Source of the DNA: a virus
Direction: 5' to 3' (one strand)
IMG/VR virus record: IMGVR_UViG_3300048837_000975
Span: 1-64,000 of that record
Length of the DNA stretch: 64,000 nucleotides
A program made the translations under genes and the position numbers. Position 1 is the first letter of the stretch, and each line of letters starts with the position of its first letter. Of the stretch, positions 40,548-50,146 are shown in pieces. The notes under the pieces are model-generated. The model was not told the DNA's origin. It saw nothing but the letters and a program-made list of their open reading frames with translations, and did no database searches.

Positions 40548-43500
40548 TTTCTGCCGATACTACCGAAACAATCGATCACGATGTCTTGAATCCTATCGCA
40601 GTATCCGTGATCGTCGTCGCCCCATCCCATAGCCTCGCTGCATATGTCATCGATCTTAGATAGCGCTGAAACCGCTACGCGAAGGCTCCTCTTCGCAGAC
40701 TCAATGATCTCAATAGCCTCGGCCAGCTCAGCTTTCGTTTGTACCAGGTCGACACAAACCTTGGCGCGCTCCTCTATTCCAGCTGCGTCAAGGTCGTACG
40801 CGATGATTTTCTCCTGGTCGGTCATAAGTCGAACACTTTCCCGGTCCCTGCGCCATTGCAGCCAACCACGATCCGCATCCTGCCATCGTGCAGGTGGGTA
40901 CCGTCGTAGCGACCGATCTCCTTTGGGTCTGCTTTCTTCACATGTGCACAGTACGCCTTTGTGAGCTCACGCGCAAGCGAAAACGAGACGGTTGGTGTGG
41001 TCTTTCCTGTCCGATCGTACTGGCGGAAGGTGCGCGTCTTCGCGAGCAGATATCCGTTCATTCTTCTTGTTTCCGTTGCGCATCTCGCAGGTTTGCTGCG
41101 GCCTCAAAGAACGCCCGGTGCTGACTCGGGAAGTCGCCGAGGCGAGTACCGTCGGTACCGATGACGGTCCAGCGGTTCACTTGCCGAAGTTCATCAAAGC
41201 GCACATGTACAGTGTGTAGTTTGTTTGAAAACGTCCACCAGTACGGTTTCACCTCGATCCACTCAAACTCTCCCGAGTAGATCATTGGGCGGTCATCGAA
41301 TCCGATTTCCTTGCTTACGCACTTGTCACACATTCTGTCTCCTAGCAAAAAATTTTTCGCACGAAAAGCTCTTCTCGGTTGTCTCTTCGCGATACCAGTT
41401 TACTCGTTCTGAGCAGCTTCCAAAGTCTCCTCCGACGTGAGCGCTCCAATGAACGCACGCTTCGCAGGTCTTCTTCCTGTTTTTACAGGAGCATCCTTTG
41501 CAGTTTTTGCAGGTCATCCCAGAACCCTGAGCGCCCACTGGATAGCGGCGGTTGACGTGGTCAGGTCGCTATTCTTAGCCATTATGGTCGGATTCGAGAC
41601 GCTAACGGACCAGCCCTTTACATCTTTCTGGCACAGTCGCACTCGAGCATTCCACATCTGACACGACCACTCTCCAATCACGTTTGTGCAGAACTCGTCA
41701 ACAGCTTCTGGCCTGAAGATGAACGTCCCGTACTTGAACTCTTTCCCTGGCTCCGGAACCTTCTCCTCGCGCTCTCTATTCTTGATGCTATCCATGTAGT
41801 TATTTACCCAGTGATCTCCGGTTACTCTCACCATTAGCGAGCCACCCATCCCATGTTGTTAGGCTTGTCCTGAAAGGATATGCTGAACGACAGATACTGC
41901 TGACCCGGCCGAATCGTTGACCTGATCCAAAGCTGTTGGTCCTTCAGGTGGTACGGAACCACCACCTTGCTGCATCCAAGGTTGCTCACAGTGATCACGT
42001 ACCCGCCGCTGTCGATCCGATCATCAGTCCTCGTTGGCTTCATCGATCATCCTAACGATCTTGAGCATGTCTCCAGTGTGATCCTTGAAGCCGTCAATAA
42101 CGTCTACACAGAACCGCCGAACCTGCTGCAATTTGTCTCGAAACCTAAACTGAAGATCGTCGCACTGCTCCGCTTCACGAATCCAGTCGTTACGCTGCCA
42201 GCGCACATGCTTCGCGTAGCGCTTCCATGTATCAGCTCGCTCCTCTGCTAGGTCTCGTCGTCGGACAGCCTCGTCGCGCTCCTCCTTCATACCATCGAAG
42301 TTCAGTTGAGCTGCGTGACAGAGAACCTGTTCGGTCTCGAGCTTTTCTCGAAGCTCCTCGCGATCAGCAAATAGCTCATCACTGAGAGCGCCAAGGGTTC
42401 CAACAAGAGTGCGCAGGTGCTTGTTCTCTCGACTGAGGCGTGCCGCATCTTCGATTTTGTTCTGAAGAGCCTGAGACTTCTCAAGATCTCGAGAGTTGAG
42501 CCTATGAATCTCGCGTTCGTAAAGCTCGATCTTCCGCAGTTGAGCACACGTCTCCTTCTCAGCAAACTCCTGATGCATCTCAGCTTCTGAAGCTCGACTC
42601 TGAATAACGTTCACAGCCTTCAGGATCTCCTCCCGAGCCGAGTCGAGAGTGACGTATGTTTCAAGAAGTTGTTCGATTGTGTTCATCGTTTGTTGCTCAT
42701 ATCCCTCAAACTTCTAGTCCAGAATACGTGGCTGTGCGCGCTATGGAGCGGGCACAACTTCAGAACATCGCCGATGCCAGCTCCATGGTCTCTTATCCAT
42801 CTACATCCGCAGGTATACTCGCTGTCACTTCCTTGTTTGTATACTCGGTTGTAGATGTCTCCGTTCGTTGGTTGCGAGTGTTTGCTCATTCTGCTCCAAG
42901 TCTCCTAAGAACAGCTTCCATTGCCTGGTTCCAGCCCCTCTTCCACATGTCTGTCTCATCGCGCGGCCACGGGTCTTTCGCCAAACGGATCAATCTGTCG
43001 ACTGAGTCCTTCAAAGCGTATTGTTCCTTGTGCACGCGGTTGACGTAACTTACGATTCTATCTCTAGCTTCGTCCTTTTCTTCAAGAGTCGCAGCGCAGT
43101 CGTAGTCATCAAGCAAGTCTTCTATGTGTGTCACTGTAACCCCTCTCTGCAGGACGACGGCGCTCCGCAGTTTGAACAGGGACCAAGCCCAAAGTCGTAA
43201 CAGTAGCTGCAGCGCCTGGGCTCAGGCTCGGACAGAACCCGGTGCGGCATCTGTGGAGTTGGGTGCTTCGGAAACGGAGGACGGTGCTCATGCGGATCGC
43301 GCGAGCTCTGACCAGCAGTCCTGGAGCTCTGCTCTGCTGCTCGTCGCATCATGGATCACCTAGCACTTCACTAATTAGCTCACGAATCATCGCGTGCTTC
43401 GCCGGAACGCTGAGTAGCTCGTGGTCCAGAACAAGGGTGATCTCCGAAAGGATCTCCTCAGCCTTTTTTGCTCTCTCCTCCATTAGGGATCCGGCGACAT

Positions 43501-44163
43501 CAGACTCCCAGCACGCAGCTCTGTATGTGTTTAGGAGATATTCGGCCCTGTCAGCTCGCGCCACCTCAGCGAAGAATAGATTCCTCTCGGTTGATGCTGC
43601 AAGCTCTGCTTTTTCTGCGCGAACAAGAGCAGATACCAGACTCTCCTGAGTCTCATAAAGCTCACCAGATAGCTGTTGAACGCGTAGCTCTGCCTTCTCG
43701 GTTCGAGCGCTAAGATCTCCGAATAACTTCAAGATGGCGTCCTTGGAGTTATCAAACCACTCCTTAGCCTCGTCAATCTCTTCTTTCGATGCTGCGCTCT
43801 CCATGCAGCAAAACAGCTCATCTTGAGCCGTGTAGAGTTCTTTTAGAAGACGTTCTATCTTAGTCATTTGTTGTCCTGATGAAGCGGGCATGACGGATCG
43901 TGAGGATGCCTTTTCCTTCCCCGGTGAGACCCCCTGCCTTCCGTTCGGCACAATGTGCACCATGAGCGTTCCATGCAAACCTCTACCACAGCTAGCGCAA
44001 GAGCTTCATGCAGAATCTTGATCTTCGCTTCTGCCTTCTCAGCCCGATCCTTCATCCGCTTCCATCGGCGTCCCTCAATCTCGGCGACTCTTCCTGTATG
44101 GCCGTACCGGCGTGCGTCGTCTAGCTCGAGATCTTCGATGTCTTGTTCTGTAAGATCGCTCAT
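40544..44163 (-). other. cluster of small, overlapping hypothetical phage genes (several coiled-coil)
   Basis: Chain of 68-220 aa ORFs with stop/start overlaps, e.g. 40544..40825, 40822..41061, 41058..41348, 41514..41849, 42024..42686, 42683..42889, 42886..43134, 43349..43978, 43864..44163. Confidence 0.65.
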
Positions 44164-44503
44164 TGTTGGTCACACGCGCACGGTATATATCCGCACGTCC
44201 CGCATTCTCCGGACGCCTTCTTACCACAGATGCCACGCACGAAAGGATCGGTCAACCAAAATCGTGTGGCATAACCCAGGTCACACGTGACCCATCAATG
44301 TTAAAACATACCCACCTAAGATGTTAGTTGAGCCTAAACTAAGCATCTGCCGAAGGTGGTATTCGTGGCCTCATCGCAAACTTTGCGTACCCTACCGAAC
44401 CATTTTGCGCATTCAGGAGGGACGCAACGGAGCAACTACCACCTATCCCACCTCAGCTAAGTACAGAAGAAAAGAAGAGAAAACCTGCCCTACACGATTT
44501 TTC

Positions 44504-44532
44504 TTGACATCGTATTTCGGACGTGGTAGACG
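44504..44532 (+). promoter_or_regulatory. sigma70-type promoter
   Basis: TTGACA-17 nt-TAGACG with TG extension and A-rich upstream tract. Confidence 0.65.
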
Positions 44533-44542
44533 TTGTGTCTCG

Positions 44543-44936
44543 CGTGTGTTCGTTTTCTTTTGTTCGCTACCGCGGACAAGCCTTCAGGGTACGCAGCTAC
44601 CAGGTGTGAGTTCGGCATTGAAGCGCTAACCCTTACCACGTAGGATGCTTTCATGCAAGGGTTGGCGCTTCCGTTCCAACCCGCAAAGCACAACCGGTGG
44701 TTCGGCGCGGGGAGGAAGTGACGAAGCGTAGCGTAGTCGCTTCCGAGAGAAAAAAAGAAATCAGGGATGTTCGTCGGCGCTTCGGGGCCGAGACCCCGAG
44801 CAAGCGGGATGGAAGGGCGAAGGGCCCTTCCCGCAGTGCAGCGCTAGCCGCTGCCCATGAGCTCTGGTCTAAAGACGTTACCGGTTGGAACTTCCTGTCG
44901 CTCCCGCCTGGCCTGGCGTACCAAGTCGGGCACACG
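44543..44936 (+). ncRNA. candidate large structured non-coding RNA
   Basis: Nested long-range helices 44543-52/44927-36, 44588-94/44916-22, 44600-06/44905-11, 44673-81/44883-91 plus several local hairpins; no convincing ORF. Confidence 0.55.
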
Positions 44937-44995
44937 TTCCTTTTCTTTAGATCTCTTTTTCTGATCTCCTACCACCTTACCAGGTTACTATAGCT

Positions 44996-45050
44996 ACGCC
45001 CGCGCGCGCGCGCGGGCGTGTGTGCGCGTATGTGCGAGCGCGAGCGCGCG
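44996..45050. repeat. alternating purine-pyrimidine (CG/TG) tract
   Basis: CGCGCGCGCGCGCGGGCGTGTGTGCGCGTATGTGCGAGCGCGAGCGCGCG. Confidence 0.7.
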
Positions 45051-45113
45051 AACAACAAAGAACCAAGAATCTGGTTGCGCCAGGTGCTTATCTGGTGTAG
45101 AGAGATCGGATCC

Positions 45114-46043
45114 ATGAGCGAAAACGAAACAGATCCGAGTGGTGGGTCAGAGAACACCGATCAGGCTGCCGGCCCGCTGGACCAACTTGCGATCGGATGG
45201 CAGCAGTCGCTGACCAAGATGCGAGCAGAGTTTGCTGAGCGACTTCGTGAGAAGGGTCCGATCGGGTGGCTCGAGGAGAACGCTCCTCGGTTGCTACCTC
45301 TCGTCGGACCGGACGTGACCGAGGAGGAGCTGCTTGCTTGCTCCAAGGAAGACCTCTCAGACGCGTCCGTGCGCATCGGGCACTGCGAGACCTGTCCGGA
45401 GACCGGAGGCGTCTGTGCGGGCGCGTACAGGGCCGGCGAGACGGTGTCCTGGGAGAAGGGGCAAGGGGTGGTCTACTCTCCGTGCTCCGAGAAGTGGAAA
45501 AAGCACATCATCACGGAAACTGTGCGACGATGCGGAGTCCCTCGCGGCATGGAGTGGGCGAAGCCTCACAAGGGCTGGGATCTTGTGACCATAGGTGCAT
45601 GGCTACGCGGGGTCATATCTGGTCAGTCGCAGAGCCTGCTCATCCTGAGCGCCCCCAGGCAGCCGCGCGTACTGGCTCCGGTATGTGCCGCCGTCGCGCG
45701 CAAGCTGACCGAGAACACGGGTTTGGGTGGCAGGTGGACTCCTGCGTGGGTCCGGAACGCCTACGCGCTGGAGGAGCCCGTTCTGCGCGCCCTGAAGGAT
45801 GATCTCGACCCACTCGACTGTGACACGACGCGCAACGCTCAGCTTGTCATCCTGTACGGGTGGGACGGAGAGATCGAACGCAAGGTCACCAGGAGTATTG
45901 ATAAGATGCTCTCGTTCAGGCTTCGAGGCCGGAGCCCTTACACAATCTTCGCCACCACTGAAAGTCCGCGTTTGATAGCAAACTGCTTCAAGCAGTGCGC
46001 GGATTTGCTAGATTGCGCAGAGGTGGTAGAGTTTAGAGGGTGA
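45114..46043 (+). CDS. DnaC/IstB-like helicase-loader-like protein with Zn-binding N-terminus, degenerate ATPase
   Basis: CxxC...C...C then GVP; SLLIL, LVIL, TIFATT strands present but no intact Walker A. Confidence 0.5.
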   Translation: MSENETDPSGGSENTDQAAGPLDQLAIGWQQSLTKMRAEFAERLREKGPIGWLEENAPRLLPLVGPDVTEEELLACSKEDLSDASVRIGHCETCPETGGVCAGAYRAGETVSWEKGQGVVYSPCSEKWKKHIITETVRRCGVPRGMEWAKPHKGWDLVTIGAWLRGVISGQSQSLLILSAPRQPRVLAPVCAAVARKLTENTGLGGRWTPAWVRNAYALEEPVLRALKDDLDPLDCDTTRNAQLVILYGWDGEIERKVTRSIDKMLSFRLRGRSPYTIFATTESPRLIANCFKQCADLLDCAEVVEFRG

Positions 46044-48474: not shown

Positions 48475-49671
48475 ATGCTTCGCCATCGCGCCTACCGCTA
48501 CGAACTAGATCCCGGTCTAGAGACCGAGGAATTGTTGCGCAAGCATTGCGGCGCAGCTCGATGGGCGTGGAACTGGGCGCTTGCGGAACGGAAGAAGCGG
48601 TTCACTGAGAAAGAAGGAAAGGAACGCTTTACGAATGCGCAGACCCAGAACAAGGAGCTGGTTCTACTTAAGCACACTACGCATCCTTGGTTGTTCGATG
48701 TAAGCAAGTGTGCTCCCCAGCAGGCGCTTCGTAATCTAGATCGCGCATTCAAGAACATAAAGAAGACTGGTGCCGGGTTCCCAAAGTTCAAGAAGCGCGG
48801 AGCGTGTCGAGATAGCTTCTATCTTCAGCTAAACATAGCCATTTCCGGACGCTACGTCCGCCTTCCTCGCCTAGGCGCCATTCGGCTGAAGGAGCGCCCG
48901 AAGGTCTACGGTGAGATCAAGAGCGCTACGGTATCACGACAAGCAGATCGCTGGTTCGTATCGCTTCACGTTGTTGAGGAGGTTCCGCTTCCGGCTCCTC
49001 CGCCTCCAAATGGAGATGTCACCGGGGTAGACCTGGGCATCAGCACCTTCGCGACGCTGTCTGATGGGACGAAGATCGAGCATCCGAAGCCGCTGGCGCG
49101 CGACCTGGAGAAGCTGAAGCGAGCACAGCGAGCGCTGTCTAGAAAGCGCAAGGGATCCAAGAACCGCGAGAAGGCGGCGCTTCGGTTCGCCAAGATTCAC
49201 ATGCGCATCGGAAACGTGCGCAAAGACTTTTTGCACAAGATCACCACGATGCTTGCGAAAACCAAGCAGGCTATAGTCGTGGAGGATCTTAACGTCTCGG
49301 GCATGGTAAAGAACCGCCACCTGTCGCGCTCTATCATGGAGCAAGGCTGGGGCGAGTTTAGGCGTCAGCTCGAGTACAAGACGGAATGGTATGGTTCAAA
49401 GCTCATCGTAGCGGATCGCTTATTCGCATCATCGAAGAAATGTTTCGATTGCGGAGAGAAGAACGCCATGCTAAAACTGTCTGATAGGAAATGGACTTGT
49501 CGATGCGGAGCGCATCACGATCGTGATGTGAACGCAGCGAGAAACCTACGCCAGCTCGGCGTGGTCAAGCCTGTGGAGAGTCCTCTTGCGGCGGAACCGG
49601 AATCCTCCGGGTCTACGAGTAATGGCTCGATGAAACAGGAAGCAGGAATGGGAAATGTCAGAATTTTCTAG
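48475..49671 (+). CDS. tnpB: TnpB RNA-guided endonuclease (IS200/IS605/IS607 family), no transposase adjacent
   Basis: HRAYRYEL, CGAARWAWN, GFPKFKK, RuvC GVDLG / VVEDL / DRDVNAA intact, CxxC..CxC Zn finger. Confidence 0.93.
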   Translation: MLRHRAYRYELDPGLETEELLRKHCGAARWAWNWALAERKKRFTEKEGKERFTNAQTQNKELVLLKHTTHPWLFDVSKCAPQQALRNLDRAFKNIKKTGAGFPKFKKRGACRDSFYLQLNIAISGRYVRLPRLGAIRLKERPKVYGEIKSATVSRQADRWFVSLHVVEEVPLPAPPPPNGDVTGVDLGISTFATLSDGTKIEHPKPLARDLEKLKRAQRALSRKRKGSKNREKAALRFAKIHMRIGNVRKDFLHKITTMLAKTKQAIVVEDLNVSGMVKNRHLSRSIMEQGWGEFRRQLEYKTEWYGSKLIVADRLFASSKKCFDCGEKNAMLKLSDRKWTCRCGAHHDRDVNAARNLRQLGVVKPVESPLAAEPESSGSTSNGSMKQEAGMGNVRIF

Positions 49672-50146
49672 GAACGCAGTGCGGAAAAGCATTAACCTGC
49701 ATACCATTAGCGGAAACATCGGGCGCGACCCGTACTACAAGCCGGGACACGGAAACGGAAGCTTCATCGCGTTCTCAGTCGCTACGTCTACGTCGTGGAA
49801 GGACAAGAACGACGAGTGGAAAGAGAAGACGCAGTGGCACAACGTGAAGGTGTTTGGAAAGCTCGCCGACAAGCTGTCGAGCGCCCTCTCTAAAGGTACT
49901 CCGGTGTTCGTCTCAGGGCGCCACGAGTACGAGAAGAAGACTGGGAAGGACGGCAAGGAACACAACGACTCCTACATCCTGGCAGACAACGTCTACGTAC
50001 TGGTCCGCGAGGAAGCCGACCCAGACCAGCGAAAGACGCAGCGACGAAAAGATCGGCAGGACAGCGCAGGTCCGATGGGCACCGCTGACGACCTGGATGA
50101 CGCGTACTACTCAGTTGGAGGTGGAGACGAAGACATTCCGTTCTGA
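49655..50146 (+). CDS. ssb: single-stranded DNA-binding protein (alternative start GTG 49679)
   Basis: N...I.GN.GRDP, FSVAT, T.WH.V..FGK, acidic DEDIPF tail. Confidence 0.95.
   Translation: MSEFSRNAVRKSINLHTISGNIGRDPYYKPGHGNGSFIAFSVATSTSWKDKNDEWKEKTQWHNVKVFGKLADKLSSALSKGTPVFVSGRHEYEKKTGKDGKEHNDSYILADNVYVLVREEADPDQRKTQRRKDRQDSAGPMGTADDLDDAYYSVGGGDEDIPF

Follow-up and report, generated by a model that had tools for sequence, protein, structure and literature searches.

Phages and phage-plasmids have divergent early control regions in which long untranslated leaders precede the replication operon. In the plasmid ColE1, RNA II is a 555 nt pre-primer, with no plasmid-encoded initiator; such origins also have a promoter for an antisense regulator (RNA I) opposite the 5' part of the pre-primer, and a lasting RNA-DNA hybrid that RNase H cuts and DNA polymerase I extends (PMC11012335). 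T4 oriF and oriG have a promoter whose transcript opens and primes the origin, a helicase loader that acts on the displaced strand, and minimal origins of ~100 bp in which the promoter is immediately followed by an A+T-rich unwinding element (PMC3016281). The locus studied here is a gene-free gap of ~950 nt (44164-45113) between two diverging gene blocks of a virus, IMG/VR record IMGVR_UViG_3300048837_000975. The window analysed is the first 64 kb of this 125,690-nt record, which is classed as linear and estimated to be 78% complete. A sequence-only reading of the window had proposed that a promoter at the strand switch drives a ~400-nt multi-stem RNA, either an undescribed large phage non-coding RNA (ncRNA) or an origin primer RNA like ColE1 RNA II, at a place where a replication initiator gene would be expected.

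Our tentative reading, to which we give a little less than an even chance, is that the gap is an early control region for the two diverging gene blocks and supplies the replication operon with a long structured leader. The same region probably overlaps or includes the origin. Conservation in relatives peaks at the rightward promoter copy and the ~25 nt that follow it, and no gene follows until that of a DnaC-like helicase loader, P0001, 575 nt downstream. As in described divergent early control regions, promoter-like elements stand back to back, repeated motifs lie over the promoters, replication genes follow directly downstream, and promoter/operator DNA is the part best conserved. Unlike in those regions, the leader (~575 nt) is unusually long and strongly folding, the two promoter copies are near-identical over 35 nt, and no repressor or regulator gene was recognised beside the gap with Pfam or PHROGs. 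On this reading the fold would belong to a cis-acting leader or origin region rather than to a separate, conserved RNA family. The locus would then give a phage lineage almost without characterised relatives a clearly bounded control and origin region, useful for annotation, and would mark where the early switch and the replication start of this phage should be sought.

In the mechanism that we propose, host RNA polymerase would start near 44539 and read on into the loader operon, giving its message a long untranslated leader. Over its first ~400 nt this leader would fold co-transcriptionally, its helices forming a closed set, and selection may keep one or more of the local hairpins. The yTACCACsT and CACACG motifs, the palindromes and the AT-rich tract would be DNA sites for regulators. 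They probably also serve the start of replication, a role proposed because of the skew minimum, the adjoining genes for helicase loader, single-stranded DNA-binding protein (SSB) and helicase, and the lack of a recognisable initiator; transcription through the region may help its opening.

Outward-facing promoter-like elements at the strand switch

Genes are oriented leftward up to 44163 and rightward from 45114, which confirms the strand switch of the sequence-only reading, and the global minimum of the cumulative GC skew also falls here (45 kb; the maximum is at 109 kb). The hexamers of the rightward element lie where that reading had put them: TTGACA occupies 44504-44509 and TAGACG, with a TGn before it, 44527-44532, and the spacer between them is 17 nt. 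Set against a sigma-70 promoter (16-18 nt spacer; -10 hexamer with A at position 2 and T at position 6), the element has a 6/6 match at -35, a suitable spacer, the TGn, and a 3/6 match at -10 without the final T. A sigma-70 scan of 43800-45400 on both strands called zero promoter-like sites; it also missed the element at 44504, because the -10 hexamer lacks the final T.

A leftward twin of this element (Table 1) precedes the first leftward gene, whose ATG is at 44163, by ~60 nt. The record contains just two copies of ACACGATTTTnnTTGAC, inverted relative to each other, at 44492-44508 (+) and 44267-44251 (-), and TTCGnnCGTGG follows each copy 7 nt later. The two promoter-like copies constitute a 35-nt inverted repeat (I1; 71% complementary) and face outward. 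Zero terminator-like sites were found within 43800-45400, suggesting that a transcript from the rightward element would continue into the loader gene as its leader.

The promoter-like DNA is the best-conserved part of the gap

The relatives of this DNA are contigs from three aquatic metagenome runs of three studies and are ~89-95% identical to it. For the X1/X4 relative, 33 of the 36 differences in 44325-44647 are listed, and the counts given here rest on the differences listed. The 73-nt block upstream of the rightward promoter carries one substitution and one deletion (~2%), the following stretch (44398-44471) differs at 24 of 74 positions, and the near-invariant block, which includes the 5' strand of the outer predicted helix, shows 0 differences in 91 nt. 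Beyond it, 8 of 94 positions differ in 44554-44647, 44648-44749 is too diverged for alignment (101 nt against 102), and 44750-44862 has 10 differences in 113 positions plus 4 gaps. The body of the predicted RNA therefore diverges by ~9%, about threefold the divergence of the loader gene (26/812; 3.2%) and close to the unconstrained rate. In the X3 relative, 2 of 89 positions are changed in 44509-44597, and 44598-44688 has diverged at equal length. This uneven spread of differences suggests that purifying selection is strongest on the promoter-like DNA and the block upstream of it.

In the X1 relative, 2,022 other nt replace 44168-44324 (157 nt, including the leftward twin and the 14-bp palindrome), suggesting that the gap is an insertion hot spot or that this relative carries an extra gene there. 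The fourth DNA run compared, X5, matched only the low-complexity CG tract and a short coding piece, and this tract draws unrelated subsurface-metagenome contigs.

The gap is non-coding and matches no known RNA family

No coding signal was found in any frame across 44164-45100. Open reading frames (ORFs) of 94-102 aa exist in the gap; the four longest have zero Pfam or PHROGs matches, and the 98-aa ORF is absent from a collection of 5.8 billion protein clusters. In relatives, these ORFs are interrupted by four 1-nt deletions within 8 nt (X1/X4) and by three 1-nt deletions (X3), net changes of -4 and -3 that break the frame. By these sequence comparisons the gap is non-coding. A conserved protein-coding frame, which the sequence-only reading had named among the findings that would speak against it, was thus looked for and not seen.

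Comparison supports the expectation of a gene in this slot. In two of two distant IMG/VR loci (L003 and L004), the DnaB gene comes immediately after a loader of the same family, and protein-coding ORFs, with no long gap, come before that loader; neither locus has any similarity to the region described here. These upstream ORFs, together with the 94-102 aa ORFs and with the replacement in the X1 relative, which shows that the gap accepts insertions, are what could be cited for a decayed gene (for example a lost initiator), a mobile-element remnant or one or more small protein genes. Nevertheless, a tblastn search with the five proteins encoded upstream in L003 and L004 found nothing in the gap (best E-value 0.25 genome-wide). 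Given also the missing coding signal and family matches, the ORF absent from the protein collection, and the frame-breaking indels, we consider this explanation highly improbable.

The whole 64-kb window was searched with Rfam 15 (4,227 models), the check that the sequence-only reading had suggested, and gave 0 matches at gathering scores. At E<=10, 44000-45200 gave five chance-level matches, the best of them to sar (18.5 bits, where the gathering score is 43; E = 1.2), and no tRNA or tmRNA was found in the window. This agrees with the earlier failure to match the region by eye to RNase P RNA, tmRNA or group I/II introns. The region resembles large structured ncRNAs (GOLLD, ROOL, OLE, HEARO, RNase P, tmRNA and group I/II introns) in its length of ~400 nt, its many helices, its closing helix of 5' and 3' ends and its phage context, and differs from them in that nothing in the window reaches a gathering threshold. 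GOLLD, ROOL, OLE and HEARO were presumably among the families searched.

A closed fold is predicted for the proposed leader

RNAfold reproduced the structure of the sequence-only reading, in which four nested long-range helices and further hairpins accompany a 15-bp hairpin (44620-34/44657-71) that the helices enclose. The nested helices predicted are 44542-52/44927-37 (11 bp), 44588-96/44913-22, 44600-06/44905-11, 44608-17/44896-903 and 44673-81/44883-91, most of them with pair probabilities of 0.87-1.0; the 22-nt loop of the enclosed hairpin opens with a copy of the TACCAC motif. On the plus strand, 44535-44940 folds at -177.4 kcal/mol (z -3.52), and 0 of 100 shuffles were as stable. The minus strand reaches -159.0 kcal/mol (z -2.21; 3 of 100 shuffles as stable). 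The plus strand has 79 pairs at a probability of 0.8 or higher, 8 of them G-U, and the minus strand has 60, 4 of them G-U. The earlier claim that G-U pairs favour the plus strand was therefore right in direction, but the modelled preference, while real, is weak. In a stability scan of 296 windows of 400 nt over the first 59 kb of the window, with GC regression, the window at 44535 ranked 10 of 296 on plus (-1.97 sd) and 120 on minus. The fold is better than chance and not exceptional.

When the transcript was lengthened to 45135 (a 601-nt fold), other pairing displaced the outermost helix, and the long-range helices left the centroid structure. The displacing pairing is a perfect 9-nt complementarity between 44549-44557, at the conserved 5' end of the predicted transcript, and 45121-45129, in codons 3-6 of P0001; in this model it could mask the translation start.

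The substitutions listed for 44563-44647 show no depletion in stems, since 6 of the 8 fall in predicted stems and 59 of the 85 positions are paired. Two keep pairing (44564, U-G to C-G; 44601, C-G to U-G), and the one at 44563 disrupts a hairpin of 0.94 probability with no partner change among the differences listed. The partners of 44604, 44616 and 44617 (44907, 44897 and 44896) fall outside the differences listed. At the GC-rich hairpin 44780-44804, the X1/X4 relative has substitutions at 44782 and 44783 on the 5' arm and 1-nt deletions at 44798, 44800, 44803 and 44805 on the 3' side, which turn the hairpin into a perfect 8-bp stem (a hand reconstruction; 7 substitutions in 44792-44862 are not listed). 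This compensatory change suggests a folded nucleic acid at this place, on either strand and as RNA or DNA.

These data bear on the proposal that the gap encodes a discrete, undescribed structured ncRNA of ~400 nt (44539 to ~44960), made from the conserved promoter, closed by a helix of its 5' and 3' ends, ended or processed at the U-rich tract, and acting in trans or as a processed RNA. The fold statistics on plus, the high pair probabilities of the nested helices, the excess of confident and G-U pairs on plus over minus, the compensated hairpin, and the position of the outer helix at the predicted 5' end and directly before the U-rich tract all fit such an RNA, which would be new, as no known family matches. 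Against it stand a body that is ~9% divergent with unalignable patches beside an invariant promoter block, stem substitutions that are not depleted and in one case break a pair, a stability rank of 10 in 296, the loss of the outer helix on adding downstream sequence, helix-forming motifs that recur outside the transcript, and the two distant phages with the same loader family, in which no homologous region is seen. Of the undescribed phage ncRNA in the sequence-only reading, the non-coding character, the plus-strand fold and the lack of an Rfam family stood; the fast-evolving body and the lack of a terminator-like site did not support it. We regard a discrete ncRNA as unlikely. If the structured transcript is functional, it would be a new large phage RNA, or else mark an initiator-less origin primed by RNA, the first such in a large tailed phage.

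Repeated motifs occur as potential DNA sites

Several hexamers are more frequent in the gap than expected: TACCAC/GTGGTA (6 against 0.34), CACACG (6 against 0.37) and AGAAAA (7 against 0.44). They occur upstream as well as downstream of the promoter, in either orientation, and TACCAC copies lie at both -10 regions, one overlapping the rightward region and one abutting the leftward. The outer predicted helices are built from these enriched motifs in inverted orientation, namely CACACG at 44543(-)/44931(+) and GCGTACC at 44588(-)/44916(+). A third GCGTACC copy lies at 44385, upstream of the promoter, and the strand 44586-95 finds a better complement (10/10) at 44384-93, also upstream of the promoter, than within the helix; this complement is TGCGTACCCT (inverted repeat I20). 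Since the helix motifs also occur upstream of the promoter, both direct and inverted, DNA-level sites fit as well as RNA.

This raises the alternative of a purely DNA-level element, an operator cluster and/or a protein-bound origin, in which the RNA fold would be a by-product of motifs in two orientations and the transcript would have no structural role. The make-up of the outer helices, the third GCGTACC copy, the TACCAC copies at both -10 regions, and the fact that both strands fold better than shuffles argue for it. However, the compensated hairpin at 44780-44804 keeps its pairing and not its sequence, the 3 G-U pairs on plus in the 11-bp outer helix are A-C mismatches on the other strand, and 2 of the 5 motif copies in the readable part of the relative are changed. 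Taken together, we find a DNA element with no role for RNA structure distinctly unlikely.

Origin-like features and the RNA-primed alternative

The pyrimidine tract and the alternating CG/TG tract are present as the sequence-only reading had claimed. The purine fraction of 44940-44999 is 0.28, the longest purine/pyrimidine alternation in the genome is at 45016-36, and at 24 nt the palindrome at 44996-45019 exceeds all others in the genome, the second longest being 16 nt. Within this palindrome, the (CG)n run at 44999-45012 lacks one CG unit in the X1 and X3 relatives. To judge from its sequence, 44996-45050 could, as DNA, adopt the Z form or extrude a cruciform; as RNA it could fold into a hairpin. 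A protelomerase target was considered at this palindrome and rejected, because no ResT-TelK_cat match occurs in the record; long telRL-type palindromes go with protelomerases of the ResT/TelK type. Iteron-type origins, taken here as at least three direct repeats of ~17-22 bp beside a Rep initiator gene, are not represented: the repeats of the gap are two- and three-copy families of 10-21 nt and 6-8-mers, with no tandem array, and no Rep3_N domain was found in the record. DnaA boxes were sought by eye only, and none was seen. Domain searches with Bac_DnaA, Phage_rep_O and Rep3_N found no DnaA-, O- or Rep3-type initiator in the record.

The lack of a recognisable initiator invites comparison with ColE1 RNA II, which the locus resembles in a promoter ~0.55 kb before the next landmark, a multi-stem transcript and alternative long-range pairings (PMC11012335). 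It has no homology to RNA II, its transcript would enter a protein-coding operon, and no antisense promoter was found in a scan that is insensitive here. The corresponding proposal is a transcript-primed, initiator-less origin in the style of RNA II or T4 oriF/oriG, in which the structured transcript would stay hybridised to the DNA around the pyrimidine and CG tracts, opening the duplex and priming the leading strand; the displaced strand would receive DnaB from the loader. The ~575 nt from promoter to next gene resemble the 555 nt of RNA II (PMC11012335), and T4 origins combine a promoter with an unwinding element and an R-loop of the transcript (PMC3016281). A G-rich, purine-rich stretch of the transcript at 44700-44820 (skew +0.27 to +0.39), the unusual palindrome and alternating tract downstream, the skew minimum, and the adjoining loader, SSB and helicase genes in a record with no initiator family are further points in its favour.

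Unlike T4 oriF and oriG, this locus has no A+T-rich element directly after its promoter; 60-nt windows over the first 180 nt (44520-44700) are 52-57% G+C. The AT-rich window here is 44458-44517, whose 65% A+T puts it at the 99.93rd percentile of the genome; it spans the -35 hexamer and sequence upstream of it, and the next AT-rich tract is 400 nt downstream. The domain searches also recognised no DNA polymerase in the record, and no RNase H, flap nuclease or 5'-3' exonuclease, or Pol A domain (Pol I), functions that a host could supply. The primer RNA of the sequence-only reading thus keeps its setting at the strand switch and skew minimum, but not the A+T-rich element of T4 origins or any Rfam match, ColE1 RNA I included. 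As the mechanism is conjectural throughout, we hold an RNA-primed origin to be improbable. Quite improbable is the more specific form of it, a phage without a protein initiator in which the hybrid of a ~400-nt RNA primes, a loader with a dead Walker A places DnaB, and the diverged, equal-length patches in 44598-44749 are specificity determinants. If true, it would bear on how replication starts in phages that have helicase, loader and primase and no recognisable initiator; the present data fall short of it.

GATC was also considered as a clustered motif and rejected, as it is common genome-wide and the gap is not among the densest windows. The record holds 1,040 copies (8.3 per kb), about twice the frequency of a random tetramer (~3.9 per kb, calculated), and encodes an N6/N4 DNA methylase at 104119-105300.

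Weighing the control-region reading

Several points weigh against a divergent control region with a leader and an origin. Promoter and leader are both read from the DNA, the -10 hexamer is poor (3/6), and the promoter scan did not call it. A second, weak promoter-like site (TTGCGC-17-TAGAGA), found by eye, lies directly before the loader gene, so the upstream transcript could be a separate RNA. Of the 31 gene starts inspected, most lack a Shine-Dalgarno sequence and often show an A-rich stretch before the start codon, which hints that translation in the host does not depend on Shine-Dalgarno pairing; such a host may use other expression signals, and the sigma-70 reading may not apply. The enrichment of the hexamers is modest after correction for ~2,080 six-mers (~0.001-0.005), and the repeats are short motifs or two-copy families, with no long iterons among them. 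Both skew extremes coincide with switches in gene orientation, so the skew is not independent evidence for an origin. Finally, because the record is only 78% complete, an initiator may sit in the missing part or among the many ORFs of unknown function.

Table 1. Features of the gap and of the first rightward gene, with positions in the window.
Feature	Position	Strand	Content or basis
Leftward twin promoter-like element	44227..44267	-	ACACGATTTT 44267-44258, TTGACC 44255-44250, 17-nt spacer, CATCTG 44232-44227
14-bp palindrome	44279..44292		GGTCAC-AC-GTGACC; between the promoter-like elements; one of six CACACG copies
Conserved 73-nt block	44325..44397		upstream of the rightward promoter; holds AGGTGGTA and TGCGTACCCT
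Near-invariant block	44472..44562	+	purine/AT-rich tract, ACACGATTTT, TTGACA, TGn, TAGACG, first ~25 nt of the predicted transcript
Closed multi-helix domain (~400 nt), predicted	44535..44940	+	fold; no Rfam match
15-bp hairpin, one G-U pair	44620..44671	+	inverted repeat I3, 93% complementary; mean pair probability 0.98
GC-rich hairpin	44780..44804		window CTTCGGGG / CCCCGA(GCA)AG; X1/X4 relative CTGTGGGG / CCCCACAG
Pyrimidine-rich tract, 60% A+T	44938..44993	+	carries CTACCACCTTACCAGG motif copies
24-nt perfect palindrome (44996-45019), then alternating purine/pyrimidine tract	44996..45050		sequence; palindrome begins ACGCC(CG)6
P0001, first rightward gene	45114..46043	+	309 aa; remote DnaC/IstB-like helicase-loader homologue

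The first rightward gene encodes a probable helicase-loader relative

The start of the P0001 gene is backed by a 309-aa call in the contig of a relative and by the N-terminus of P0004, its one real homologue below 90% identity (38%). P0001 has an N-terminal Cys motif and a degenerate Walker A, and itself gave no Pfam match at E<=0.01 and no PHROGs match. A phmmer search found 25 proteins at E<=0.001; when 24 of these were scanned (the 112-aa fragment P0003 was excluded), 12 matched IstB_IS21 at E<=0.01, 9 of the 12 above the Pfam cut-off. The weaker homologues have the N-terminal motif C-x2-C...C...C in common. At the Walker A site, P0007 and P0014 have G-K-T where P0001 has P-R-V, and P0004 has also lost the G-K-T. 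P0001 thus has neither an intact Walker A nor recognition by the IstB_IS21 or Bac_DnaA models, and shows the homology and the DnaB proximity of a DnaC/IstB-like loader, the DnaB gene lying 4.2 kb downstream in the window. These comparisons suggest that P0001 is probably an ATPase-dead relative of helicase loaders. The DnaC-like gene of the sequence-only reading accordingly survives as a remote IstB/DnaC-like relative, but one with a degenerate Walker A and no family match of its own.

Neighbouring genes and other observations

With Pfam and PHROGs, the leftward block near the switch was found to encode a RecE-like exonuclease, a beta clamp and RecT, and the rightward block to encode P0001, small unknown ORFs, TnpB, SSB and DnaB. 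The second half of the record carries DnaG primase and a tyrosine recombinase. A DNA search of INPHARED (50,697 phage records) with this phage gave zero matches, as did a search of it by the P0001 protein, and the phage DnaB is at most 35% identical to anything in INPHARED. No related DNA was found in IMG/VR via P0001, DnaB or P0004, no exact 23-mer of the promoter in IMG/VR and JGI metagenomes, no degenerate twin-promoter pattern in IMG/VR, and no match to the P0001 and P0004 alignment in metagenome contigs and genome contigs. There was no RNA run among the listed sequencing runs that hold the sequence. By sequence comparison, the phage is large, aquatic, novel and far from anything characterised.

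The first two leftward genes (43864-44163 and 43349-43866, minus strand) overlap as ATGA, which suggests coupled translation. The 99-aa product of the first of them is charged and has several Cys/His residues and zero family matches. The TnpB gene (48475-49671, +; OrfB_IS605, Cas12f1-like TNB and HTH_OrfB) is located between the loader gene and those of SSB and DnaB, and its 3' end overlaps the start of the SSB gene (49655-50146) by 17 nt. The 400-nt window at 49135 is the fourth most stable on plus in the stability scan and would fit a guide (omega) RNA at the 3' end of TnpB. The most stable 400-nt windows of the scan, on both strands, lie at 1735-2335 (-3.3 and -3.4 sd), where G+C is 0.66-0.69 and three short 10-nt tandem repeats occur at 1985-2176.

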